Below are positions 1 through 51,052 of a stretch of DNA of 52,329 nucleotides, in pieces (the first letter of the stretch is position 1; every line of letters begins with the position of its first letter). This stretch comes from Escherichia virus TH53. The stretch lies in the sequence record MT446419.1; one strand, written 5' to 3'. A model generated the notes under the pieces. It was not told where the DNA came from. It searched no databases and worked only from the letters and a program-made list of their open reading frames with translations. The position numbers and the translations under genes are program-made.

Positions 1-332
1 TCAAATTGTTTCAATATTAATGAGACTAGAATTCGTAACAAAGCTACGAGACTCGAATTGTGGCGATATTATTTTATTTTTGAGGTGGCGGGGAGGGGAA
101 GCCCAACGTCCTATCGGACTTAAAATACGGTCCCTACCCCAACTTTTTCCTACAGCCTATCGGCTTTCAAACAACACCAAGTTAGGCGCTTCGCTTATGG
201 GTCAAGGTCAAAGTCTCCGTGCTGTTGTAACAATGGCACAGGTTTGTGATATTAGTTGGAAGTGAATTGTGTAATGGCTACGCTATTATAATCCGTTTCA
301 GTTAAATCATACACAATCTTGGAGACTTACAA

Positions 333-2273
333 ATGACTACTATCACCACTCAAACTATCAAATCCGTTGTTCCTGCTATCACTGCTCTGGTATACCGTGC
401 CAAAGAGAAACAGAACTATATGCAGCCTCAGACTTGTGCTATTGCTGCCTTAGCCATCTTCAAGATGATGACGTCTTTCACTCGTGATGACGTTGTTCCT
501 GCCATCGCGATGGTTGAGCTGGCTTCTGCTTCTATTGCTGATGCCAACCGTTATAACAACGATTTGAAAGCAATGCACTATGTTGACCCAGCTATCAACC
601 TCATTGGTCTGGCTAAGCACTTTGGCTTCATCACCATGAACGAAGACAAGTCATTCCAACAAACTGATACATGGGTTGAGCTGGTTACAACTAAAGACAC
701 CGCAGTGCCATTCACTGAGCGTGTTACATCTGAATCTCGTCGCAAGCCTTTCGTTAAAGGTGGCAAAGTTAAGCCATCCAAGACTCTGAAAGCTGCAATC
801 GAATTCCTGCAAGATACTGAGTACCATGTGGAGACTGAGATGGTTCGCATCATCCAGTCCATGATTGAGCAACGTACTTATGGTGGCTTGCAGATGCCAG
901 AAGCAATCCAGACTGAACTCCATGTTTGGAACAATGCTGTAGCAATGATGAATCAGGATAAGCTGTATTCTGACTACTTTGCTGATAACCGTGGTCGTCT
1001 GTATCATGTAGCATGTGCTGGTCCTAACCCACAATCCTCTGACTTTGCTCGTTGCTTGTATTCTCACAATGTTGAGAACATCGTTAAAAAGTTTAACGAA
1101 GATGGTTCTACTACCATTGCATACAACATGTTCATGGCTGAGCTGGAAGATATTTCCGGTGGTGAATGGTGCAGTGCTAAGCGTTTAACTTATGTTGCTC
1201 AGAATCCAGCTGGTTCACTTGCTCGCATGATGAACATGCCTAAAGCTGAACGTCCTTCTAAGCCATTCACTTATGTTCGTCTGGCTCTGGATTGGTTCAA
1301 GTTTGAGACTACAGGTGAGTGTGATTCTCGTGTAGGCTTCGGCTTAGATGCTAAATGTTCTGGTACTCAATATCTGGCATTCATTGCTGGTAACATGGAA
1401 ATGGCTCGTGCAACAGGTCTGGTTGATTCTGAGACTAAAGCATCTGACCCATACCAGTTATCTCTTCGTGAACTGTTGAAGTTATTGGACCGTTCTTCAA
1501 TGAAGCCATCTCCTGAAATTATGGATGAATTCTTGAATCCGAAAGCTGGTCGTAAGTTTATCAAAACTCCATACATGGCTATCCAATATGGTGGTGGTAA
1601 AGCTGCATTGACTGGTTCTTCTGACTTCATTAGCTACATGACAGAAGCGCTCCAGATTCCTATGGAGAAAGCTGAGGCATTTGCTGAACTGTGTGTAGAA
1701 GCAATCCATAACGCATTGGGTGCTAAGATTAACATGTTCATTGAGAAGGCTGCTGATGCTGCATACAACCGTTGTGTTGAACTTGGTAAAGAGTACATCA
1801 CATACCGTCACACTGATGGTCAGGTTGTAATGAAGCCTTGCTTCCCATCTCGTGAAATCTGTGAGGCATTCAGCATTCGTGTTGACTCTCAAACTCGTGT
1901 TATCTTTGGCCAGATTCAGGAGAATAAGCCTTGGACCATTCGTGAATCCAATCCAACTAAAGAAGAATTCAAGCGTACTTTCGTTGTTAACTACATTCAA
2001 GGTATTGACGCATTGGTTGCTCGTACTGTTGCAGTTAAGGCTAAAGAAGCTGGTCTTCGTGGCTTCACTTCAATCCACGATTGTTTCCGTTGCTGCTTAG
2101 CTGATGCTCCACGCATGATGGAAGTTATTCGTGCAGCATATGTTGAAATCTTCGTAACCAACAATCAATTCGAGAATCTGTCTAAGCAACTTGGTGGCAT
2201 TCAGATGTATCATGAGAACATCGTAACCGAAGAGCTTCTGATGAGCGAACACGCTTACTACTTCTGTCAATAA
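333..2273 (+). CDS. single-subunit T7-like DNA-dependent RNA polymerase, short 646-aa form
   Basis: Seen: motif B-like RKFIKTPYMAIQYGGGK (T7 RSVTKRSVMTLAYGS) and motif C-like SIHDCFRC (T7 HDSFGT). Inference: about 240 aa shorter than T7 RNAP, so most of the N-terminal domain is absent. Confidence 0.85.
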   Translation: MTTITTQTIKSVVPAITALVYRAKEKQNYMQPQTCAIAALAIFKMMTSFTRDDVVPAIAMVELASASIADANRYNNDLKAMHYVDPAINLIGLAKHFGFITMNEDKSFQQTDTWVELVTTKDTAVPFTERVTSESRRKPFVKGGKVKPSKTLKAAIEFLQDTEYHVETEMVRIIQSMIEQRTYGGLQMPEAIQTELHVWNNAVAMMNQDKLYSDYFADNRGRLYHVACAGPNPQSSDFARCLYSHNVENIVKKFNEDGSTTIAYNMFMAELEDISGGEWCSAKRLTYVAQNPAGSLARMMNMPKAERPSKPFTYVRLALDWFKFETTGECDSRVGFGLDAKCSGTQYLAFIAGNMEMARATGLVDSETKASDPYQLSLRELLKLLDRSSMKPSPEIMDEFLNPKAGRKFIKTPYMAIQYGGGKAALTGSSDFISYMTEALQIPMEKAEAFAELCVEAIHNALGAKINMFIEKAADAAYNRCVELGKEYITYRHTDGQVVMKPCFPSREICEAFSIRVDSQTRVIFGQIQENKPWTIRESNPTKEEFKRTFVVNYIQGIDALVARTVAVKAKEAGLRGFTSIHDCFRCCLADAPRMMEVIRAAYVEIFVTNNQFENLSKQLGGIQMYHENIVTEELLMSEHAYYFCQ

Positions 2274-2630: not shown

Positions 2631-3451
2631 TAACAGAATACGGAGAAGTATTCCGCATGTCATGTTGAAATCATTCTAGAAACATTTCAGCATGTCAACT
2701 AAACATACAGTGTTGTAATGATGTGGCAATCATTGAACTCCCTGTCTTTGGCCGGACAAAGTTCCAACAACCATGTGTGAAGTAGGATTATCATTCGAAA
2801 CTGTTACTTCAATATAGCATGTTCAATTGCGACAATATTGCCCCATCTCCTATTATAAAGGCCCACCCACAAGCCGGGAGATAACTTTGGTAATATTGGA
2901 ACTTTTGGACATGCTTCTTTCTTTCAATCAGAATTCGAAAGGGGAGAAGAAGTCGGACAAAGCCTCTCGTTTTCACGCAGAAGCCGCCCCGATTTTGAGC
3001 AACAAATATTGTGACAATATTGTCGCAGTATGGCATGTAAATATTGCTACAAATTGGCATGTTGGAATGTGGCAGAATTGTTAGAGGACTAATCACCTCG
3101 AAGATACAATCGTCTACCAATCTGGCATGTTAATTTTGTAACAGTATTTGTGCCAATTTCGCATGTAGTATTTAACCCAATATTCTTGCAACCCGCATGA
3201 ATACTGGCTTCCAGCCAAGCGAAGGCTTTATCATCGCATGTAATATTGTGACAATATTGGGATAAAACCCTTTATTTAATTAGTTTTATTATGCTGTACA
3301 TGGTCGGTTTTCCGTACCTGCTTGCTCCAATCTTAATGTGCCAAATACGTTAAGTATGGGAGTAAACCTGTAATTAATGGTGCATGTTTAATTGTGACAA
3401 AATTCGTCTATTTGGCAGATGAGTTAGTTGCAATTAAGCATGTTCATTTAT

Positions 3452-3470
3452 CATTAGTTGCATGTGAATA
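3452..3470 (+). promoter_or_regulatory. variant motif CATTAGTTGCATGTGAA, copy 2
   Basis: Degenerate copy about 190 nt upstream of the first early gene at 3662. Confidence 0.35.
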
Positions 3471-3661
3471 AGACCAAATCTCTGTAAATTCTGCTGAAAT
3501 TGTGTGACAGATTTTAGAGAGATTATGTCTCCAAGCTAATCATTGTAGTTTTTCGGCACTTGCTGTGTCACATACTCCCTACAGCTTTAAGGTGGATTGA
3601 GGTAAGACAAGACCTCCACAATCGTTCTGTAGGGAGTTTTCTTTTAACTTAGGAGAATAAA

Positions 3662-4746: not shown

Positions 4747-4932
4747 TTGGAGTATAAAATGAACGACCAGCAATTCAACACATTCATGCAGCAGATTAAT
4801 CATCAAGAACTGATGGATGCCATCAAAGGCAAGAAGCCAGTCGAACGTCAATATCGTAAAATTGATAATTATATGCCAACAATCATTGCGTGTGTTGGAT
4901 TCCTGATTGCTCTTTACTTCCTGGTGAAATAA
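4747..4932 (+). CDS. small membrane protein
   Basis: C-terminal hydrophobic segment PTIIACVGFLIALYFLV; GGAG RBS. Confidence 0.45.
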   Translation: MEYKMNDQQFNTFMQQINHQELMDAIKGKKPVERQYRKIDNYMPTIIACVGFLIALYFLVK

Positions 4933-5027
4933 TGTCAATTGTTAAGAAATTAGCATTCTGCGTTTTAATGTTCCCTCTAGTGCTGCTCGTTGTGGGCAGC
5001 TTCATGTACTTAAACTAAGGTAATTAA

Positions 5028-7111: not shown

Positions 7112-7311
7112 TGATTGTAGATACACATTTGTATAGCCACAAAAGCTACAGTCCTACTGGAGTTCCTGCTGGATGGACTTTGTGGTTTGTTGAAGTGGAT
7201 GACAACCCATACTGGCACAATGTTGAGTGCAAATTCCTTCCAGTGAAGCCGACCAAAAAGCAAATACGCAAATTGCGTAGAAAGTTTATAAACGATTGCA
7301 AGTCCTGTTAA
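7111..7311 (+). CDS. hypothetical protein
   Basis: AAGGTGA RBS; translationally coupled. Confidence 0.45.
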   Translation: MIVDTHLYSHKSYSPTGVPAGWTLWFVEVDDNPYWHNVECKFLPVKPTKKQIRKLRRKFINDCKSC

Positions 7312-7351
7312 ATTAACAAGGAGCATTCATTGAGTGTTCCTGATTAATCTA

Positions 7352-7370
7352 ACATTAGTTGGATTTGAAG
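7352..7370 (+). promoter_or_regulatory. motif ACATTAGTTGGATTTGAAG, copy 3
   Basis: Ends 74 nt upstream of the ATG at 7444, the same spacing as the copy before 13357. Confidence 0.55.
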
Positions 7371-7443
7371 AGGGACAAAGCTATTCCGTGGTTAGCAATG
7401 TCACTGAAACTTAAACTGTAATTAACTTAAGAGAATCTTAATC

Positions 7444-7818
7444 ATGGCACAATATTCAGATGTAAACACTGGCATCATCGGTCCTAACGGCTTCAAGAAA
7501 GACCCAAAACATCCTGACATTCGTGGACGTATTAACGTTGACGGAATCTGGTATTGGGTATCTGGCTGGAACAAGCAAGCAAATGGTAATGAGTTTACCT
7601 CACTTGCATTAACCATCATGACCCAAGAACAGGTCGATGAAATGATGCGTAAGCGTGAAGAGAAGGCTAAAGCCAAAGCTCAACCTCAAGCTGCCGCTCA
7701 ACAGCAACAGCAACGCCAGCAGCCTTCTGCACAACAGCAAGCACCTGCTCAGCAACAGCAGCAGAGCAACTACAACCCGAACGAGCCGAAAGACTTCGAC
7801 GACGACATTCCGTTCTAA
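7444..7818 (+). CDS. protein with E. coli SSB-type C-terminal tail (DFDDDIPF), possible ssDNA-binding protein or SSB-tail mimic
   Basis: Seen: C-terminus PKDFDDDIPF preceded by a Q/A-rich linker. Established: DFDDDIPF is the E. coli SSB C-terminal tip that recruits SSB-interacting proteins. Inference: the N-terminal 70 aa may be a small OB-like domain. Confidence 0.6.
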   Translation: MAQYSDVNTGIIGPNGFKKDPKHPDIRGRINVDGIWYWVSGWNKQANGNEFTSLALTIMTQEQVDEMMRKREEKAKAKAQPQAAAQQQQQRQQPSAQQQAPAQQQQQSNYNPNEPKDFDDDIPF

Positions 7819-8629: not shown

Positions 8630-8817
8630 TTAACAGAGGTCATTCCACTTCGAGTGGCCTCGATTAATTATTGGAGGATTTATGTGGGATATTTATCTTG
8701 AAGGTGTTGACGAGCCAATTTCAACACTTAATACACAATTTATTATGGTTGGGTGTGCAATTCTTTATAAAGGTAAGTTACACACTGTATCTAAAATAGT
8801 TCAGAGGCATTAATTCC

Positions 8818-9168
8818 GTGAAAACTTTATACATTGCACTAACAATCCTGTTCGGAGTATTCGCATTTAAATCGGAAGCGTCTGTTCGAAACTTCCAGTG
8901 TGGCGGATACAAAATGTCCGTTGAAACAATTACAATGAGCCAGCCACTCATTGCAACAATTTCTTTGCACGAGGGTACTTGGATTGAGATTCCGGACAAT
9001 GGAAATCCTAACCCAATGTCCACAGTGTTCTATAACACACAGAGCAGTAAGCTGGCTTTAGTTGGTGTTGACGCTGAGGAACGTTTAGTGCTACAGATTT
9101 ATCGTGACATTGACTTCTTTCATGCCAAATTCCCACTGTTATCAACATATTGTAAGGAAGTTAAATGA
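8818..9168 (+). CDS. secreted or periplasmic protein with N-terminal signal peptide (GTG start)
   Basis: N-terminus MKTLYIALTILFGVFAFKSEA looks like a Sec signal peptide with an AFK-SEA cleavage region. Confidence 0.45.
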   Translation: MKTLYIALTILFGVFAFKSEASVRNFQCGGYKMSVETITMSQPLIATISLHEGTWIEIPDNGNPNPMSTVFYNTQSSKLALVGVDAEERLVLQIYRDIDFFHAKFPLLSTYCKEVK

Positions 9169-9398
9169 CGTCATCCGAATTTACCATTGATGGAGTACCG
9201 TACTTACTTGAATCCAGTTGCGAATATCGTCACTGGTCAGTAATTCGCGACCGAGTAGTTAAATTCTTGGAGCGAGTGGGGAAAGATGCGGCTATTCTGA
9301 CTACAGCCACAGTAGAAGGAACAACCGAAATCAATCGGGAGCTTGTATCTTTTAAATTAACCATCAACCCAACAGGAAATCCATTCCGTGAAAGTTGA
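9165..9398 (+). CDS. hypothetical protein
   Basis: AAGGAAG RBS; ATGA overlap. Confidence 0.5.
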   Translation: MTSSEFTIDGVPYLLESSCEYRHWSVIRDRVVKFLERVGKDAAILTTATVEGTTEINRELVSFKLTINPTGNPFRES

Positions 9399-9657
9399 AG
9401 AACTAGCTGACCATCTTGAGGCAGCAAAACAAGAGCTTGCAACTCACTCAGAACGTGTTGAAACACTGAAAGGGCAAGGTTCAACAGCCGAAGAAATCCA
9501 GCTATTTACAGATAATATCTGGTTTTCAATGAATCGTGCACAGTTTATTCAGATTCAGGAAGACCGCCTTGCTGAATTGGAAAAGCGTGTTAAAACACTT
9601 GAGAACTTGCTCGTAACATTGCAAGAAACTTTGGACCAGGAGCTGAAAAATGTCTAA
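9388..9657 (+). CDS. hypothetical coiled-coil protein (GTG start)
   Basis: Charged heptad-rich ORF. Confidence 0.4.
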   Translation: MKVEELADHLEAAKQELATHSERVETLKGQGSTAEEIQLFTDNIWFSMNRAQFIQIQEDRLAELEKRVKTLENLLVTLQETLDQELKNV

Positions 9658-10048
9658 TGTTAAGCTGGGCCAACGTTCTCTTGACCGATTAAAGGGCGTA
9701 AACCCTTCATTGGTGGCAGTTTTCAAGCGTGCATGTGAAACAATGCCGTTTGACGTGACTGTTCTTGAAGGATTGCGCACTTATGAGCGTCAACAAGAGC
9801 TTTTAAAGCAGGGTGCAACCAAAGTTTCAGTTAGCCGACACATGTCAGGCAATGCTTTAGACATTGCACCATACCCAATTGACTGGAATGACCTCGAACG
9901 ATTCCAAATTGTAGCTGAACATATGTTCAAAGCCGCAGAAGAGCTTGGAATTGTCATTCGTTGGGGCGGAACATGGGAGCGTTCATTCACTAAGCCAGTG
10001 AAATGGGCTAAATTCCTAGACGCACCACACTTCGAACTTCCAGCATAA
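9650..10048 (+). CDS. peptidase M15 family (VanY / L-alanyl-D-glutamate peptidase-like) muralytic enzyme
   Basis: Seen: SRHMSGNALD (SxHxxGxAxD zinc-binding signature) and DAPHFEL (second His). No signal peptide. Confidence 0.75.
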   Translation: MSNVKLGQRSLDRLKGVNPSLVAVFKRACETMPFDVTVLEGLRTYERQQELLKQGATKVSVSRHMSGNALDIAPYPIDWNDLERFQIVAEHMFKAAEELGIVIRWGGTWERSFTKPVKWAKFLDAPHFELPA

Positions 10049-10068: not shown

Positions 10069-10347
10069 ATGAATTACGAAGATATCCCAAGAGAGTTGAA
10101 TGCACTGGAGTCAAGAACCATCCGTGCAGAGAATATTCTCCACCAGCACCTATCAATTAACGTAGATGATGAAAAGAGGATGCGGTACACTATGGAACTT
10201 GACGATGTAGTCTACACTGTCAGTTACAACGAGAAGGCTGCTATCCTCAGTGCACTTATCAAAGGCGGGAATGAGCGAATCAATCAACTTAAGATTCTGG
10301 ACACAGAATTGAGAGGTACTTGGGAGAAACTAAATGCAAAACGATAG
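10069..10347 (+). CDS. hypothetical protein
   Basis: ORF in track from 10057; ATG at 10069 has the better GGAG spacing. Confidence 0.45.
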   Translation: MNYEDIPRELNALESRTIRAENILHQHLSINVDDEKRMRYTMELDDVVYTVSYNEKAAILSALIKGGNERINQLKILDTELRGTWEKLNAKR

Positions 10348-10882
10348 CATTGCTCAAGCAGTAGAACAGCTTAAGTCCTGGCGTAGAGATGAAACCTTAT
10401 TGGTTCGTTTCTACACAGGCGAAACTAATTCTGAATTTGTAGATGCGTGGATTGATGGCCTGTCTTGGCGTCACTATGATTTCAACATGCGAGATTATTT
10501 GCATGAAGAGTACGGCATTGAATACCCAGAAGACGGTACATATGACGTAATTGAATCAAACGAAGAAGATGTTACCGAAGTTTGCTTTGCCAATGGGCTA
10601 TTCAGCATTCGTAAATATGATAAGTTCAATGAGCTGCTTGTTGACACCGATTTGGATGTAATTCTTGCAGCATTCCGCAGTGGTGAGATTGATATTTTCA
10701 CTGTGGATGATTTGAACGACATGTTCATCACACGTTGCGACTCAATTACAGAATATTTGAAGCAAAGTGAGGCACTGGATATTCCAGACCGCCTTGCACC
10801 ATATATTGATTGGGATGCAATCACCAGAGATTATGGAAGTGACTACATTTTCTCTGAGGGAATATTATTCTTAAATGCGTGA
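10334..10882 (+). CDS. highly acidic protein (candidate DNA mimic)
   Basis: Seen: very high D/E content across 182 aa. DNA-mimic function is inference. Confidence 0.5.
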   Translation: MQNDSIAQAVEQLKSWRRDETLLVRFYTGETNSEFVDAWIDGLSWRHYDFNMRDYLHEEYGIEYPEDGTYDVIESNEEDVTEVCFANGLFSIRKYDKFNELLVDTDLDVILAAFRSGEIDIFTVDDLNDMFITRCDSITEYLKQSEALDIPDRLAPYIDWDAITRDYGSDYIFSEGILFLNA

Positions 10883-15122: not shown

Positions 15123-15359
15123 ATGCAACAGCTTAAATCAATAGTTCTTGGCGTCCTGACTGCATTTGGTATTCTTATTGCAGTGTTCCTCAAAGGCAAA
15201 AGCTCAGGCAAAGCCGAGGAGCGTCAGGAAGCCACAGAGAAGCAACTAGATTCATTAAAAGAATCTATCGAGATTAAATCGCATGTTCAGAAAGAAGTGT
15301 CTAGCAGTTCTGATAGCAATGTCGATAGTGAGTTGCTCTCAAAGTGGGTTCGTAAGTGA
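15123..15359 (+). CDS. i-spanin-like protein (Rz-like)
   Basis: N-terminal TM segment IVLGVLTAFGILIAVFL followed by a charged coiled-coil region; the next gene is embedded in another frame. Confidence 0.55.
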   Translation: MQQLKSIVLGVLTAFGILIAVFLKGKSSGKAEERQEATEKQLDSLKESIEIKSHVQKEVSSSSDSNVDSELLSKWVRK

Positions 15360-15492
15360 TTATTGCTTAATTGCACAACCAATCTATTTGGATGTTGCAG
15401 AAGTGAAAATCTTATCGCGCGAAACCAAAACACAGATTTTAGTCCACAATGAAACGTGGGCACAAAAGTGTTCGAAACTTACCCGACAGTGA
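15283..15492 (+). CDS. o-spanin-like lipoprotein (Rz1-like)
   Basis: Signal peptide with lipobox IVSC (MFRKKCLAVLIAMSIVSC); starts inside the i-spanin ORF in the +1 frame and runs past its stop. Confidence 0.55.
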   Translation: MFRKKCLAVLIAMSIVSCSQSGFVSDYCLIAQPIYLDVAEVKILSRETKTQILVHNETWAQKCSKLTRQ

Positions 15493-37293: not shown

Positions 37294-37469
37294 TATCCCT
37301 GTTCCCCGACATAAAATATTTTCTGCATCGTCCTATAATCGAAGACAGTTCTCTCTGCAAGTTACGTGAATTGCAAGATGGAACCTATTCGATTATGGAC
37401 TTATTGCTATTCCACGACATTCTCGATTTGCGTAAGAAACTCGAACCAGTAGATGAAGACAATGGCTAA
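36835..37469 (+). CDS. tail assembly chaperone, predicted -1 frameshift long form
   Basis: Seen: slippery heptamer T-TTT-TTC at 37191-37197; the -1 frame opens exactly there and runs to 37469. Confidence 0.5.
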
Positions 37470-40400
37470 TCAAAAAGATTTAATGAAGTTGAGTGTTAAT
37501 GAGTTAATTGCATTAGGCTCTCAAAGCGGTCTGACTTTCCATGCTGGTATGAAGAAGTCGCACATGGTTCAACAACTTAGTGCGAGCGCTGCTTCGGGAT
37601 GGCTGGATACAAATGCAGAATTAATGGGTGGGTCGTTTGAAGATGATAGTTTAATTACTGAATCTCTGGGCGACTCTTCCATGATTTCAGACGCTGCCCA
37701 CATTGCACAAGTGCTCTCAAGTGCTGGCTACACAGAAGCATTTCATGCAGCAATGAATGGTCCATCACACCATGTAGAAGCTGTTCACGCATACATGGAA
37801 AGGCTTGGTGTCAACACAGACGATGTGTGGATGCACATGCCGAAGCCAAATCCGAACCTACCGCAGGGTAGCTTCAACATGCTTAATGCCTATATGCGAG
37901 ATACTTTGCAAGGGCATCAAGATATTATGCCAGAAATCCCAGGCCATTATGCTGGCGATATTATGGCTGAATACTCCACCAACCGTGGAAACATTGCTGA
38001 CTCATACAACTACATGGCCCACATGTATGTTGACCGTGAACAATACAGCAATCATGAACAATACGCAAGAGACATTAGTCGAGTTGCCAAACGTCTGGAA
38101 CAAGAGTTACCCGCAGCCTTTAAGGAAGTTGGGTATACCTCGGCCTCTAATGTAGGAAATAAATCGGCTCCACATATTTCTTACATGGATGCACTTCCTC
38201 AGATTGGTTCTCCTTCAATTGTTTCTGGCATTGCACATCCTCGTGCACCTCTTAACGCATCTGGACTCCCACTTGGTTCTTATGGTTCTGGCATAAATCC
38301 AGAATACTCTCTCACTGCATCATTAACTGGTGGCACTGGTTGGAGCGAACCAAGCAAGGCTTTGTATTCTTCCATTAGCGAAGCTGTTAAATCTGCTGCC
38401 AAAGTTTATTCCGGCTCCAAAGGGATGATGAATACTCGTCACGAAGTATCTGACCGTGACATGATTATGGATAGTGCAACTCGCTATACAGATTTGGAAG
38501 AAGCCAGAAGCGGGTACGAAAACCTTCGTTCTGAACTTGCAGATGAACCAGCTTATTCTGCATCGAGTGTTCGAGCTATTCTCGAAAACACTTATGACAA
38601 AATGGATGCCGAACCTGTTCGCATTCCAAAGATGAAGGGAGCTTCACAGCGAGTCGAAAAAGATTCGCAATCAACATCTACAGATTTTACAGCACAACTT
38701 GGAGAGGCCACCAATTGGAACTCTGCAAGAATGCGTCGTGAGGAAATTGCGATTGCAAATATGGATAGTGCTGGATTCCGTGATGTATCTGACTATGGTA
38801 CAGGACGTTCCGAGTCTCCCGTCAGATTCCATGACTTAGAACAGGGTAGCCAAGAGTGGCTAGACTTCCGTAAAAATTATGACATAACTGGCTCAACTGT
38901 TGGAACCTTCTTAGGAAACAACCCGTATACCCGACCTTGGGCGGGAATGATTGACAAGATTGGTTTATCTCGTAGCAAAGAGCACAGCGATTTCACTAAG
39001 AAGATGTTCGCTGATGGTCACAGGACGGAAGAAGAAGCACGCGCTCGTGTTGGTAAGGAATTTGGATTCGATATCAAACAAACTGGCGCTATAACAAATG
39101 ACAACTATCCCGCCTTCATGTATTCTCCTGATGGTCTTATTGGTGATGATGCCATTTGGGAGCACAAGAATCCGCAAAGGGCTGGTAAGTTTGCTGACCT
39201 TCTTAAAGGCGACCATCCAGATTACATGGACCAAATTCAATTTGGTATGCACGTTTCTGGCCGTTCTCGTGCTTTGTTCTCACAAACCATCAACGACGAA
39301 ACACGTTCACAATGGATTGAGAAGGACGAAGGATGGTACGAGAGAAACCGAAATCGTCTTGATTCTGTGCTTGGCCGTCTTGATGCTGGGCGAGAGTTTG
39401 TTAGAAACAATGCTGGGCTAGGCCGAGAAGAACTGATTGCTGGTGCAAGAAGTGCAATGACTGGTGATGGTATCTGGAAGGATATTCGTCAAAGGTCAAC
39501 TCGCGGCTACTCTGCCGTTGCTGGAACTCCAGAAGACCCATTTATTGGTTCACGTTCTTCATACAATCCAAAGGCATCTTATTCAGACTACCAGCCAAAC
39601 TTTGTAATGCACGAGCAAAACTTTCCAGCAACCACAGGAAATGGTGATACTGGAAATGACTCGATGGCATTGTCTGTTAAGAAAGGTATCCTTGCTGCCC
39701 AGGAAGAAAACAGGCAGAAGGGTATCGGTGCAGATGCAGACTTTAATGGCAAAGCCGACTCAATGGGCTGGGACCGTGAAAGATTTGATGCTGCCAATGG
39801 CGGTGGATATTCTGGCGGTGGCGGTGGTCGTGGCGGTAACTTCACAAGTGGTGGCAACTACTATGATGACTACGGTCGCATGGGTGGTTCACTAGCTGCT
39901 GGTATTGCTGGTGGCAGCATTGGTTCAGCAACCAACGGAGTTATGCAAGCATTGATGGCAACTCCTGCTGGACGTATGGCAGCTGTAGGCATTGGTGCTA
40001 TTCAGATTGGCAATGAAGCTGCTGAATACATGAATGACTTTATCGGCAACTCGCTTGATGCTGGTGTTATGAATCCTAATGAATATTCTTCCATGTCGCA
40101 AGGCTTGGAGATGTTAGGACTCAACTCACAACAAGCGGCACGTCTGAATCAAACCACACATAGTGCCTACAACACTATGCTTAACGGCGACCCCAGCGCC
40201 GCTGTGAACATCGTTCGCGGCAGTAGGGGATTGCTCACCATAGGTGATATTCGTGCGACAGGCGGCGACCCTGTGGCCCTGGCTCGCATCATGCAGGAAA
40301 GGGGCAAGGAGCGTGGCTGGAGTCAGGCCCGTATCGCAGGTGCTGCCGAAATGGCTGGCCTGAATGGGATGGCGAGAGCCTACGACCGCACGGAATACAG

Positions 40401-41178
40401 CCATGAGCAAGCTGGTTCGGTGGTAGAAGCGGGTAGAAACTCTGACTTTGCCGAAGGTATGGTTCAGTCAGAAATGTTGCAGGGGAGCCGCGCACGCGTG
40501 CTGCCTAGCTACAACGTGCCACAAAGTGTCCTATCTAATGGCGCCCCAATCTTCGAAGCCGGAAGTGCTGCACTTGATGGTGCTCGTACTGGATTCAATC
40601 AGGCCCGTGAGTTTGCTGGAAGTGTTTACGACTTTATCGCTCAGGAAGAATCCGGTGGTCGTGAATACAATAAAGATGGTTCTCGTGTAACAAGTCGCAC
40701 TGGTGCTCGTGGAATAATGCAAATTCTTCCTTCGACTGCCCGTGACCCAGGATTTGGAATCAAGCCATCTGATGGAACTCCAGAAGATGATGCACGAGTT
40801 GGTCGCGAATACTATGACGCAATGTACAAGCGTTATGGCGACCACGAAAAGGCAATGGCTGCTTACACCGATGGCCCTGGCACTGTAGATGAAGCCATTA
40901 AAGATAAAGGATTAGGTTGGCTTACTGCTGTTCCTAAACAGGCACAGAATCGCGTCAAAGCATTCCGTGAATGGTCCAAGTCTTCTCAATCTTTGGAAGA
41001 GGGTGCTACAGGGTTTACTCGCAATGGAATGTCTTATGGTCAAACCCAAACTGTTGTCAATGTTAAGATTGATGCCAAGGTCAACAACCAGGTTGCTTCT
41101 GCTACAGTTGCAGTTCCTGGGGGCCAGACTGTAACTCAACAAATGAACATGAACAACGGTGCACAACAAAGACGTTGA
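37453..41178 (+). CDS. tail tape measure protein with lytic transglycosylase (SLT) domain
   Basis: Seen: 1241 aa after the chaperone; SLT-like block EESGGREYNKDGSRVTSRTGARGIMQILPSTA near nt 40630-40760; Gly-rich segment near nt 39780-39940. Confidence 0.7.
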   Translation: MKTMANQKDLMKLSVNELIALGSQSGLTFHAGMKKSHMVQQLSASAASGWLDTNAELMGGSFEDDSLITESLGDSSMISDAAHIAQVLSSAGYTEAFHAAMNGPSHHVEAVHAYMERLGVNTDDVWMHMPKPNPNLPQGSFNMLNAYMRDTLQGHQDIMPEIPGHYAGDIMAEYSTNRGNIADSYNYMAHMYVDREQYSNHEQYARDISRVAKRLEQELPAAFKEVGYTSASNVGNKSAPHISYMDALPQIGSPSIVSGIAHPRAPLNASGLPLGSYGSGINPEYSLTASLTGGTGWSEPSKALYSSISEAVKSAAKVYSGSKGMMNTRHEVSDRDMIMDSATRYTDLEEARSGYENLRSELADEPAYSASSVRAILENTYDKMDAEPVRIPKMKGASQRVEKDSQSTSTDFTAQLGEATNWNSARMRREEIAIANMDSAGFRDVSDYGTGRSESPVRFHDLEQGSQEWLDFRKNYDITGSTVGTFLGNNPYTRPWAGMIDKIGLSRSKEHSDFTKKMFADGHRTEEEARARVGKEFGFDIKQTGAITNDNYPAFMYSPDGLIGDDAIWEHKNPQRAGKFADLLKGDHPDYMDQIQFGMHVSGRSRALFSQTINDETRSQWIEKDEGWYERNRNRLDSVLGRLDAGREFVRNNAGLGREELIAGARSAMTGDGIWKDIRQRSTRGYSAVAGTPEDPFIGSRSSYNPKASYSDYQPNFVMHEQNFPATTGNGDTGNDSMALSVKKGILAAQEENRQKGIGADADFNGKADSMGWDRERFDAANGGGYSGGGGGRGGNFTSGGNYYDDYGRMGGSLAAGIAGGSIGSATNGVMQALMATPAGRMAAVGIGAIQIGNEAAEYMNDFIGNSLDAGVMNPNEYSSMSQGLEMLGLNSQQAARLNQTTHSAYNTMLNGDPSAAVNIVRGSRGLLTIGDIRATGGDPVALARIMQERGKERGWSQARIAGAAEMAGLNGMARAYDRTEYSHEQAGSVVEAGRNSDFAEGMVQSEMLQGSRARVLPSYNVPQSVLSNGAPIFEAGSAALDGARTGFNQAREFAGSVYDFIAQEESGGREYNKDGSRVTSRTGARGIMQILPSTARDPGFGIKPSDGTPEDDARVGREYYDAMYKRYGDHEKAMAAYTDGPGTVDEAIKDKGLGWLTAVPKQAQNRVKAFREWSKSSQSLEEGATGFTRNGMSYGQTQTVVNVKIDAKVNNQVASATVAVPGGQTVTQQMNMNNGAQQRR

Positions 41179-49081: not shown

Positions 49082-50131
49082 ATGGCTAAAGGTTACTCTT
49101 TAGATGCGCTGGTTAACGAGCACTACATGAAGTCTCGTACCAACCTGGATAATACAAACTTAGGCACTCTCACAGGAATGGGCAGTGTTGGGGTATATTA
49201 CCAATCAGCCAACGCCTATGCTACCCTCGCAAATGACTACCCTGGTGGCGCTCAGGCGGGAACTCTTGAGGTTCTTCCAACAAATGCCAGCACTGTAGGC
49301 CGTGTTACACAACGGTACACGAACTGGCAAAACCAACGCATGTGGGTGCGGGGACAAAGCAGGAATACGCCTGCTGAATTGGGTTTTGGTCCGTGGGTAG
49401 AGCTTATAAATGCAAACAACATTTATAATGCAATCTATCCGATTGGTATTGTATTGCAGTTTGACAACGCCACCAACCCAAACAATGCCTTCACCGGAAC
49501 TGTGTGGGAGCAAATCACTGATGGTCGTGCTGCTCGTGCTGCGACTGGCCCCACTGCGGGAACTTCTGATGGTCAGATTGGTTCAGTAGCTGGCAGTGAC
49601 TCTGTATCTATCACTGTAGACAATTTACCAAGGCACACACATGACCTGCGTGAGCATACCCACTCCATTGGTGCCCATACCCACACGATGGCCCACACTC
49701 ACACCATCAACCACGACCACGGGGCAGTGAACACCAGCACCGCTGGTTGGCACGACCACTCGCTGAGTGGCACAGCTAACGCTGCTGGTGAACACTCTCA
49801 CCCAATATCTCAGGGTGATAACGCCAACGTACCGAATGGTAGGGTTGCTTCCTCAAACTCTCGTGAGACGCACGTAGGTTGGACAAACGGTGCTGGCAAC
49901 CATACTCACAGCATTAGCGGTACAGCCAATGGTACTGGCAACCACACACACACAGTGGACTTGCCTAACTTCACAGGTACAAGTGGTGGCTCTAGTGCTG
50001 CAAACACTGGTGGGACATCCTTGACTACAGGTGAACCAAGCAACAACACCTCTAATGTTACGGGCGGTGACAAAAACCTCGATGTAAGAAACTCTTCACA
50101 CTACTATGCCTTCTGGAAACGGGTGGCTTAA
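49082..50131 (+). CDS. tail fibre / receptor-binding protein with His-rich HxH repeats
   Basis: Seen: HTHDLREHTHSIGAHTHTMAHTHTINHDHG, GEHSHP, GNHTHSISG, GNHTHTV. Confidence 0.6.
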   Translation: MAKGYSLDALVNEHYMKSRTNLDNTNLGTLTGMGSVGVYYQSANAYATLANDYPGGAQAGTLEVLPTNASTVGRVTQRYTNWQNQRMWVRGQSRNTPAELGFGPWVELINANNIYNAIYPIGIVLQFDNATNPNNAFTGTVWEQITDGRAARAATGPTAGTSDGQIGSVAGSDSVSITVDNLPRHTHDLREHTHSIGAHTHTMAHTHTINHDHGAVNTSTAGWHDHSLSGTANAAGEHSHPISQGDNANVPNGRVASSNSRETHVGWTNGAGNHTHSISGTANGTGNHTHTVDLPNFTGTSGGSSAANTGGTSLTTGEPSNNTSNVTGGDKNLDVRNSSHYYAFWKRVA

Positions 50132-50138
50132 GGAACTC

Positions 50139-50480
50139 ATGGAACGTTTATCTATTCAAATGTTTGTGGACCTCATGCACCAATATGGTGTTTGGCATGG
50201 GCTGCTGGCTGGTCTGACAGCTTTAATCCGTGGGGCATACGAAAGTGAAGGTTTAAGCAAAGCGTTGCTGGATGCAGCGCTATGCAGCTTGATTGGCTTG
50301 TTTGCCTTTCATGTTGCTGGCACGTTTGAAACTTTCACCACTAACGTCACAATGCAGTTAGTTCTGGCTATCGTGATTGGTGTCATTGGTGCAAACCTCA
50401 TTATCACAACTGTCAGGGAAAGTTTCTCTGGCGCAATCAAACAACTTAACCCTTTGACGTGGTTCAAGAAGGCACGATGA
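50139..50480 (+). CDS. holin (putative)
   Basis: Three predicted TM segments; directly upstream of the endolysin. ATG 50139 chosen over track start 50106. Confidence 0.5.
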   Translation: MERLSIQMFVDLMHQYGVWHGLLAGLTALIRGAYESEGLSKALLDAALCSLIGLFAFHVAGTFETFTTNVTMQLVLAIVIGVIGANLIITTVRESFSGAIKQLNPLTWFKKAR

Positions 50481-50497
50481 AATGATAAGGAACTCGA

Positions 50498-51052
50498 ATG
50501 CTATCATTCAAAGTCCTTGCACTTCTAACAGCTTTAGTTCACATCAACGCCCCAGCTTCGGTTGGGGCAGTGAATTCTGCTATTACAGATTTTGCAAGTC
50601 ATTCTTATTTAAATGGAAGTCTGAAACTATCTTCTTCACAACGCAAAGAGCTAGAATGCTACGCTAAAGTTATCTGGTATGAAGCTCGCGGAGAAGACAA
50701 ACATGGAAAGATTCTGGTAGCTAATGTCGTCCGCAATAGAACAGAGTTCGGGAAGCCATTCGCTAACACCGTTTGTGATGTTGTCTATCAACGCAATCAA
50801 TTTGCATGGACACGAGAAGCAAAGAAGAAGAATGCTCAATGGAAGCATGTAGCAAAGATTAATTATGCCACAGAACAACAACAAGTTCTGGACACCATTA
50901 ATGTTGCAATCTCTTTTGTATTATTTAATCAACCCTCTGTCACCAAAGCAACCCACTTTTGTACAGCATCGGAGAAGTGCAACTTCAAGAATGTAAAAGG
51001 TTTGGGACGTTATGGTGGCCATAAATTCTATGAGTATCTAGGAAATCTGTAA
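50498..51052 (+). CDS. SleB/CwlJ-family cell wall hydrolase with N-terminal signal sequence (endolysin)
   Basis: Seen: [29 protein letters not shown]...[15 protein letters not shown]; hydrophobic N-terminus [20 protein letters not shown]. Confidence 0.75.

Follow-up and report, generated by a model that had tools for sequence, protein, structure and literature searches.

A secreted protein of Escherichia virus TH53 with a predicted MliC/PliC-type beta-barrel: a possible inhibitor of a peptidoglycan-cleaving enzyme

The window analysed here is the whole 52,329-nucleotide sequence of Escherichia virus TH53 (MT446419.1), in which all genes are on the + strand. The gene of interest lies at 8818..9168 (+) and encodes a secreted protein of 116 amino acids, for which we use the working label PP. 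It has a GTG start at the codon where its relatives have ATG, and the TGA stop overlaps the ATG of the next gene; reading the sequence upstream one finds AGAGG, which is Shine-Dalgarno-like, at 8803..8807 (+), 10 nt 5' of the GTG. The open reading frame is a real gene, and PP is the homologue of phiEcoM-GJ1 gp18, ST32_0021 and SA91KD_23. The surrounding DNA is 87-93% identical to that of phiEcoM-GJ1-like phages of Escherichia and Yersinia, such as flopper, ST32, Bp7 and SA91KD, which belong to the family Chaseviridae, subfamily Cleopatravirinae, genus Carltongylesvirus. PP is in phrog_35432, and this and the other PHROGs matches for PP and its small neighbours are all to families without an assigned function, while Pfam, NCBIfam and PADLOC gave no match for any of these proteins. 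No description of PP was found in literature searches on Chaseviridae lysis, signal peptides, superinfection exclusion and phage-encoded MliC/PliC proteins. The "LRP" of Pantoea phage PA1 was considered as a counterpart and rejected, as the LRP paper deals with a different neighbour of the lysin.

The PP gene is situated between the gene for SSB (7444..7818) and an ArdA-like antirestriction gene (10334..10882), within a block of genes for DNA metabolism and host takeover. There is a match to the phiEcoM-GJ1-type promoter for the phage RNA polymerase at 7350..7369 (+), 5' of the SSB gene, and this is the probable start of the transcription unit that includes PP; the position of PP in the SSB-ArdA unit behind this promoter match suggests early or middle expression. 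A GC-rich hairpin at 8636..8661 (+), between a 233-aa gene and PP, has a counterpart in SA91KD that is annotated as a terminator, but its U-tail is weak and read-through is therefore likely. Downstream of PP there are two small genes, for a 77-aa protein (9165..9398, +) and an 89-aa coiled-coil protein (9388..9657, +), and then, as the third gene 3' of PP, a gene at 9650..10048 (+) for an M15_4 L-Ala-D-Glu peptidase that has no signal peptide. The lysis genes are dispersed in this phage, and this linked lysin gene is in the same block as PP; lysozyme gene 3.5 of T7 is likewise placed among the class II genes.

The first 21 residues of PP (MKTLYIALTILFGVFAFKSEA, 8818..8880, +) form a predicted type I signal peptide. 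The N-terminus reads MK-TLYIALTILFGVFAF-KSEA up to the predicted cleavage site and SV after it, giving a short charged n-region, a hydrophobic core of 15 residues and small residues at -3 and -1, with cleavage placed after SEA, before S, by rule-based inspection. Of the 18 full-length cluster representatives of the family, 17 keep a hydrophobic N-terminus with an AXA-like site, so the signal is not a chance feature; the single exception (P0009) looks 5'-truncated. There is no lipobox in PP or in any other family member. The original prediction that the protein is secreted is thus well supported, and PP is very probably periplasmic. It was also claimed that no other early gene has a clear Sec signal, and for soluble proteins secreted by way of signal peptidase I in the early and middle region this holds in a scan for export signals of all non-nested + strand ORFs, in which only three other convincing export signals were found in the window. 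These include the membrane anchor of an i-spanin (15123..15359, +) and the lipoprotein signal of an o-spanin (15283..15492, +), the two genes overlapping to form a pair at 15123..15492.

PP itself was considered as a spanin and rejected, as it has neither the lipobox of an outer-membrane lipoprotein nor a C-terminal hydrophobic segment such as anchors a u-spanin, and the spanin pair is elsewhere. Identity as a lipoprotein or antiholin was likewise rejected: PP lacks both a lipobox and a membrane anchor, and the holin of the phage, which is lambda-S-like, is at 50106..50480 (+). PP is not the sole envelope-targeted product of the window, as the spanins and a SleB-like hydrolase discussed below also have this destination. 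There are in addition, at 4747..5018, two candidates for small membrane proteins, of which one has a hydrophobic segment at its C-terminus and the other is a hydrophobic mini-ORF.

A word-indexed protein search for homologues of PP gave 2 clusters, and with HMMER, run exhaustively against 1.84 billion representatives, the family grew to about 19 clusters, after removal of one spurious match (P0007) that is a translated repeat array. Where the context can be read, the family members are in Chaseviridae genomes, in Chaseviridae-like contigs of about 53 kb or in short fragments, and the Cleopatravirinae phages examined that carry PP infect Escherichia, Yersinia, Erwinia, Pectobacterium, Pantoea and Aeromonas. 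The mature domain of PP comprises residues 22-116 (95 aa; 8881..9165, +), and across the family its length is 91-113 aa, mostly 92-96, with a mature pI that ranges from 4.9 to 9.2. Throughout the family there is a cysteine about 7-20 residues past the cleavage site and a second one 2-13 (usually 2-5) residues from the C-terminus. G53 and C112 (codon 9151..9153, +) are invariant, and C28, W55, E57, P59 and A80 are nearly so (at least 90%), C28 (codon 8899..8901, +) being kept in every member that covers the position. The most conserved motif is G53-x-W55-x-E57-h-P59 (GxWxEhP; 8974..8994, +).

AlphaFold2 run on the family alignment gave a model (pLDDT 86.4, pTM 0.73) with a low-confidence signal helix at residues 4-15 and after it eight beta-strands and a single short helix, so that the mature domain is predicted to be an eight-stranded antiparallel beta-barrel. 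C28 and C112 are in strands 1 and 8 of the model, from which we infer a beta1-beta8 disulfide. The GxWxEhP motif is on strand beta4, where W55 and E57 should face outward because both alternate with hydrophobic core positions. It is followed by loop 4 between beta4 and beta5 (residues 60-68; 8995..9021, +), which is variable in length, rich in D, E, N, S and G, and has a lower pLDDT. In a Foldseek search with the model the top matches were three PliC chains, with a probability of 0.99 but E-values of only 0.03-0.05. In a viral structure library the significant matches include the homologues in Mangalitsa and 4HA13 and two more entries, none with an informative annotation. On the strength of the model a PliC-like fold is likely, and PP probably has a barrel of the PliC/ACP type.

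The MliC/PliC proteins (Pfam PF09864, COG3895) are periplasmic or membrane-bound inhibitors of C-type lysozyme, examples being Brucella PliC (4mir), Salmonella PliC (3oe3) and E. coli MliC/YdhA (2f09). They are defined by a signal sequence or lipobox, an eight-stranded barrel, a beta1-beta8 disulfide, which is common to MliC, PliC, ACP and PhiA, and two motifs, SxSGAxY on loop 4, with which the active site of the lysozyme is plugged, and YxxxTKG on strand 6 (PMC2267010, PMC5507604, PMC8334348). Loop 4 is the inhibitory loop and is inserted in the active site of the lysozyme (PMC5507604). PP is like PliC in having a type I signal, a mature domain of about 95 aa and a predicted eight-stranded antiparallel barrel; its cysteine positions in beta1 and beta8 match those of the MliC/PliC disulfide, the bond itself being a prediction for PP, and its loop 4 has the same topological position as the inhibitory loop. 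However neither SxSGAxY/SGxxY nor YxxxTKG is present in any of the 20 PP family sequences, which have instead GxWxEhP on strand 4, ahead of loop 4. None of the 20 matches PF09864 or any other Pfam family at E<=10, the family profile has no match among PDB sequences at E<=10, and hhalign of the family against an MliC alignment, itself shallow (Neff 1.6), gave a probability of 0.9%, which is not significant. The pI range also differs from that of PliC, which is uniformly acidic, and PP is encoded by a virulent phage whereas MliC and PliC are encoded by bacteria. With the motifs absent and no sequence or profile match, PP should not be filed as a member of the family of MliC and PliC, and the lack of similarity, the missing motifs and the variable pI all count against its being an inhibitor.

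PP resembles in this respect ACP of Neisseria (6gq4) and PhiA of Brucella (7dpy), which share the fold and disulfide without the family motifs, and it has no sequence relationship to either. ACP inhibits lysozyme with this fold and without the motifs (PMC5507604). PhiA, a tetramer that is also the third match to PP, has a genetic link to the autolysin SagA, yet gave no inhibition of SagA in vitro (PMC8334348), and this failure to inhibit the proposed target is a further point against reading PP as an inhibitor. PP might instead have an unrelated role, as a small ligand-binding barrel of lipocalin or avidin type or as a structural protein of the periplasm. We consider this very improbable, as all positions that face the core are hydrophobic, with the conserved polar residues apparently on the outside, and as it is specifically the PliC/ACP group that shares the signal peptide, the size of about 95 aa and the cysteine pair in beta1 and beta8.

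What we propose for PP is inhibition of a peptidoglycan-cleaving enzyme. PP would be exported by Sec and, with its 21-residue signal peptide removed, would be a soluble periplasmic protein, the 95-residue mature part folding to a small eight-stranded beta-barrel in which a C28-C112 disulfide would hold strands 1 and 8 together. Bacterial protein inhibitors of peptidoglycan hydrolases, those of the MliC/PliC/ACP/PhiA group, are built in this way, and PP could bind and block a periplasmic peptidoglycan-cleaving enzyme by means of the outward W55/E57 face and the adjacent acidic loop 4. One candidate for the target is in the virion: a tape-measure-like protein of 1241 aa (37453..41178, +) carries an SLT lytic transglycosylase domain at residues 1060-1152 (40630..40908, +), and PP might neutralise this enzyme as it arrives with further incoming virions. 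The infected cell would then exclude superinfecting phage and resist lysis from without, as it does when Spackle acts on gp5 lysozyme. Protection of the wall of the infected cell would be the most likely purpose because PP appears to be expressed with the early and middle genes.

The closest functional analogy for the role proposed is T4 Spackle (gp61.3), a small disulfide-containing protein, made early and exported to the periplasm with cleavage of its signal, that blocks the gp5 tail lysozyme of superinfecting phage (PMC7677548, PMC7650644). PP shares with Spackle the signal peptide and the conserved cysteine pair, and from its position it would also share early expression. However Spackle is an alpha-helical bundle that acts allosterically, whereas PP is predicted to be all-beta, and the candidate virion enzyme is an SLT domain on a tape-measure-like protein and not a lysozyme of gp5 type. 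No homology of PP to Spackle was found among PDB sequences at E<=10, which should include the solved Spackle structures (PMC7677548). The original prediction had put forward superinfection exclusion or receptor masking as the likely role, and the predicted MliC/PliC-like fold would give the exclusion idea a concrete mechanism. As a whole the original interpretation is supported in part.

The PP gene exists as three alleles within the genus, 36-47% identical to one another. Allele A, the allele of the window, is present in 34 records with 98-100% identity to the window protein; allele B is in PO103-1, TH37, Ecp_YSF, BSBP01, 2KOFFS and PYps23T, and allele B' in Mangalitsa and FXie-2024a. For allele A the window gene was compared with those of six relatives, giving pS of 0.26-0.30, pN of 0.004-0.007 and pN/pS of 0.01-0.02. 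This is the lowest pN/pS in the neighbourhood, where SSB has 0.01-0.12, the M15 peptidase 0.04-0.21 and most hypothetical neighbours 0.15-0.40. The synonymous divergence is equal to that of the neighbouring genes, so the conservation of allele A is due to selection, and a recent sweep is rejected. In sliding-window comparisons the divergence between alleles starts shortly 5' of the start codon, and in the B' phages it stops at the PP stop codon, with flanking DNA 88-100% identical on both sides. In FXie the replaced segment takes in a small upstream ORF as well, and in PO103-1 the genes 3' of PP stay divergent too. From these borders we conclude that PP is essentially a swappable single-gene cassette.

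We looked for phage genes that vary together with the PP alleles in a scan of 8 genomes, with PYps23T (allele B) as reference and its 81 ORFs compared with those of two other B carriers, five A carriers of the same clade and the window, the right-end genes being added. Only the PP gene itself separates the A from the B carriers, with 95% identity among the B carriers and 42% between B and A; in these 8 genomes there is no such separation by the genes for the tape measure, baseplate, fibres, M15 peptidase, holin, SleB-like enzyme or ribonucleotide reductase. By per-record identities, PP alleles are combined with M15 alleles in every possible way, and likewise with SleB-like alleles. B and B' are found only with particular classes of SLT domain, but as A occurs with all SLT classes this looks like phylogeny and not coupling. 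There is therefore no co-adapted phage partner, and the target of PP should be a conserved site or a host component. The absence of co-variation between the three alleles and any hydrolase or virion gene of the phage counts against the inhibitor reading, and for virion genes also against a self-specific exclusion factor. The virion SLT domain has a rather low probability of being the target.

A host component is the basis of another explanation, in which PP binds a conserved component in the periplasm or outer membrane of the host, either a lytic transglycosylase or another autolysin, with stabilisation of the wall during infection, or the phage receptor, which is thereby masked. Allele A is almost the same in phages that differ by 20-40% in their own proteins, and it is shared by phages of E. 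coli and of Yersinia; together with the very low pN/pS this fits a constant external partner, and the genome-wide scan that found no co-segregating phage gene is in its favour. There is also a precedent, as MliC and Ivy are weak inhibitors of the E. coli enzymes MltA and MltB (PMC10139938). However three alleles that differ as much as these do on the same hosts are hard to square with a single constant target. As regards masking, the receptor-masking proteins Llp of T5 and Cor of phi80/T1 are lipoproteins, with a lipoprotein signal and anchoring in the outer membrane, and masking of this type is less likely for PP with no lipobox in its family. We regard a host-directed role as on the whole unlikely, though it is the strongest of the alternatives to an inhibitor with a Spackle-like purpose.

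The linkage to a lysin gene has also to be considered. In every relative with readable context the PP gene is followed, in order, by a gene of about 80 aa, a coiled-coil gene of about 100 aa and a gene for a small peptidoglycan hydrolase, and in the longer contigs the ArdA-like gene comes next after the hydrolase. The family of the hydrolase is not constant, being M15_4 in the window and in two relatives (L010 and L012) and CHAP in two more (L009 and L013). The M15_4 peptidase is a second candidate target or partner, and PP could be its accessory, a "safety catch" or immunity-like partner that mops up cytoplasmic peptidase leaked across the membrane before holin triggering or tunes the enzyme once released. 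That all relatives examined retain the order of PP, spacers and lysin, also where another lysin family has taken over, favours such a role. Against a self-specific exclusion factor, this constant linkage to a gene for a small peptidoglycan peptidase points equally to a lysis-related role. However adjacency is weak evidence because gene order is conserved throughout the phage family. Moreover PP remains one homologous family although the lysins linked to it belong to different catalytic families, and this speaks against a fit to one specific active site, and PP alleles assort independently of M15 alleles. In type VI secretion there are immunity proteins that might be compared (BtaiB, 9jdd, and the PliG-type Tsi3), but the PP-linked lysin has no export signal and, unlike those immunity proteins, PP does not co-vary with the alleles or the family of the lysin.

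Two more distant phages bear on the same question. Proteus phage Myduc has no detectable PP homologue, and has directly 5' of an M15_3 peptidase gene an ORF of 112 aa with a signal peptide and an N-terminal and a C-terminal cysteine, in a position relative to SSB that differs from that of PP. Such an arrangement at another genome position speaks for an accessory of the lysin, although homology of this ORF to PP is not detectable. Phage pAh6-C, the single Nefertitivirinae genome examined, has neither PP nor the M15 peptidase, which would again fit a partnership, but the co-absence is not specific to the peptidase because the SLT domain, ArdA and both spacer genes are absent as well. Taken together these data leave an accessory of the linked lysin as an improbable explanation, a little below the host-directed one.

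The remaining candidate target, and a less likely one, is the SleB-like hydrolase (Hydrolase_2) encoded at 50498..51052 (+), at the far right end and directly after the holin gene. It has an N-terminal signal or SAR sequence of its own, which would put it in the envelope before lysis, and PP could act as a brake on it and so set the timing of lysis. It is the only phage peptidoglycan hydrolase predicted to be periplasmic before holin triggering, and it belongs to the Hydrolase_2/spore-cortex-lytic enzyme family, in which SleB is reported to be a lytic transglycosylase, a class that comes nearest to the targets of PliC-type inhibitors. However tethering to the membrane normally keeps SAR endolysins inactive, the PP and SleB-like genes are 41 kb apart, and their alleles occur in all combinations. 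The presence of the SleB-like enzyme in pAh6-C without PP counts weakly against it as the target. Such a brake is thus the least probable of the roles considered, and highly improbable.

Inhibition of some peptidoglycan hydrolase has in our judgement close to an even chance of being correct. The conserved signal, the cysteine pair, the AlphaFold2 model, the ranking of PliC chains in Foldseek, the conserved motif that leads to loop 4, the low pN/pS and the precedent of ACP are all in its favour, and for the Spackle-like purpose there are the virion SLT domain of the phage and the Spackle precedent itself. As a whole the best explanation is a periplasmic PliC-like inhibitor that gives protection of the Spackle kind, and we put it forward tentatively, at somewhat less than an even chance. 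The wider proposition, that a virulent phage family owns a peptidoglycan-hydrolase inhibitor of MliC/PliC fold, a beta-barrel counterpart of Spackle, either derived from the lysozyme inhibitors of bacteria or convergent with them and present as three cassette alleles that are deeply diverged and each frozen, is possible but rather less probable.

To our knowledge Spackle, which is alpha-helical, is the only phage-encoded inhibitor of a peptidoglycan hydrolase with a worked-out mechanism. If our interpretation is correct there would be a second and structurally unrelated class, built on the fold of bacterial lysozyme inhibitors, and it would follow that phages repeatedly evolve periplasmic factors for protection of the wall. 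It would also explain a conserved "hypothetical protein" of the Cleopatravirinae phages examined, and provide a compact scaffold for inhibitors of lytic transglycosylases or peptidases. Several Cleopatravirinae phages are under development for biocontrol, and if PP excludes related phages this could affect the design of phage cocktails. The allele pattern merits explanation in its own right, with amino-acid change near zero within an allele, only 36-47% identity between alleles and no co-varying partner; the three alleles could be discrete inhibitor specificities, directed at the enzymes with which competing phages enter, at the lysin of the phage itself or at host autolysins.

In the phages related to the window, a conserved position downstream of the secreted protein gene (8818..9168 in the window) encodes a small lysin that has been swapped across relatives, and can be M15_4, CHAP or M15_3. 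The window has an M15_4 lysin, two metagenomic relatives have a CHAP lysin (L009, 6915..7394, and L013, 1380..1865), and Proteus phage Myduc (L022) has an M15_3 lysin at 3190..3555. Relatives with the secreted protein family keep that gene upstream of the lysin despite the change of lysin, and in Myduc a similar-looking gene stands in its place. This gene, Myduc_018 (2843..3181), is a 112-aa ORF immediately 5' of the M15_3 peptidase gene, and its product has a signal peptide (…ACHPVLA/SS), a QYFCQNG motif and a C-terminal cysteine. Homology of Myduc_018 to the secreted protein family was looked for and none was detectable. Myduc_018 may have arisen independently as an analogue, or may be one that has diverged very far.

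The HMMER search for the family also gave P0007, a protein of 1181 aa with six matched stretches, which we rejected as a member. It is an artefact of the protein collection: a translated repeat array with the recurring unit VALHAGAWIET, probably from a CRISPR array that was called as a gene, and GxWIE is the only motif by which it matched.

The secreted protein has three alleles with 36-47% mutual identity, each highly conserved internally (window gene compared with those in the records L002, L007 and L008), and the break points of allele exchange are at or near the gene ends. No partner that co-varies with the alleles was found anywhere in the genome. The M15 peptidase of phage Mangalitsa is identical to that of the window, yet the secreted protein there is the B' allele (44% identity); the Mangalitsa record aligns with the window at shifted coordinates, and the two are different phages. 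The closest relative of the window in this region is flopper (92%). The copy of the secreted protein in Staphylococcus phage Pel53 (PP952070.1) is 99% identical; this record has about 88% DNA identity to the E. coli Chaseviridae compared here, though labelled as a Staphylococcus hyicus phage, and the host label looks doubtful.

L010 (JGI 3300014912 Ga0121502_100026) is a Chaseviridae-like contig of 53.1 kb, with regions of interest at 330..1283 and 7242..7780. In it the module of secreted protein gene, two further genes, M15 peptidase and ArdA genes adjoins ParA/ParG partition genes and a PhD/ParE toxin-antitoxin pair, and their presence beside the module suggests that L010 is a plasmid-like (phage-plasmid) member related to Chaseviridae. 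The family is otherwise regarded as strictly virulent. PYps23T (L021, 8680..9057) and TH37 (L014) have an inserted homing-endonuclease gene that separates the M15 peptidase gene from the ArdA gene; this insertion is absent from the window and most other relatives compared.

The lysis functions of the window are dispersed. The cytoplasmic M15 peptidase is in the middle region (9650..10048), and at the right end a lambda-S-like holin is followed directly by a SleB-like hydrolase with a signal/SAR sequence (50106..51052). The spanins (15123..15492) are 35 kb from the holin. With the SLT domain in a tape-measure-like protein (37453..41178) there are three peptidoglycan hydrolases, and the phage keeps two soluble lysins. 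Two small membrane-protein candidates are in the early region (4747..5018). The first, in phrog_30513, a family with no assigned function, is about 58 aa long and has a hydrophobic segment at its C-terminal end; the second is encoded by an ORF that overlaps it, has about 28-42 aa and is nearly all hydrophobic. In the 1241-aa tape-measure-like protein the SLT domain is C-terminal, and there is an additional YqaJ-like recombinase/exonuclease domain at aa 468-604 (Pfam E 2e-13), which is unusual for a tail protein.
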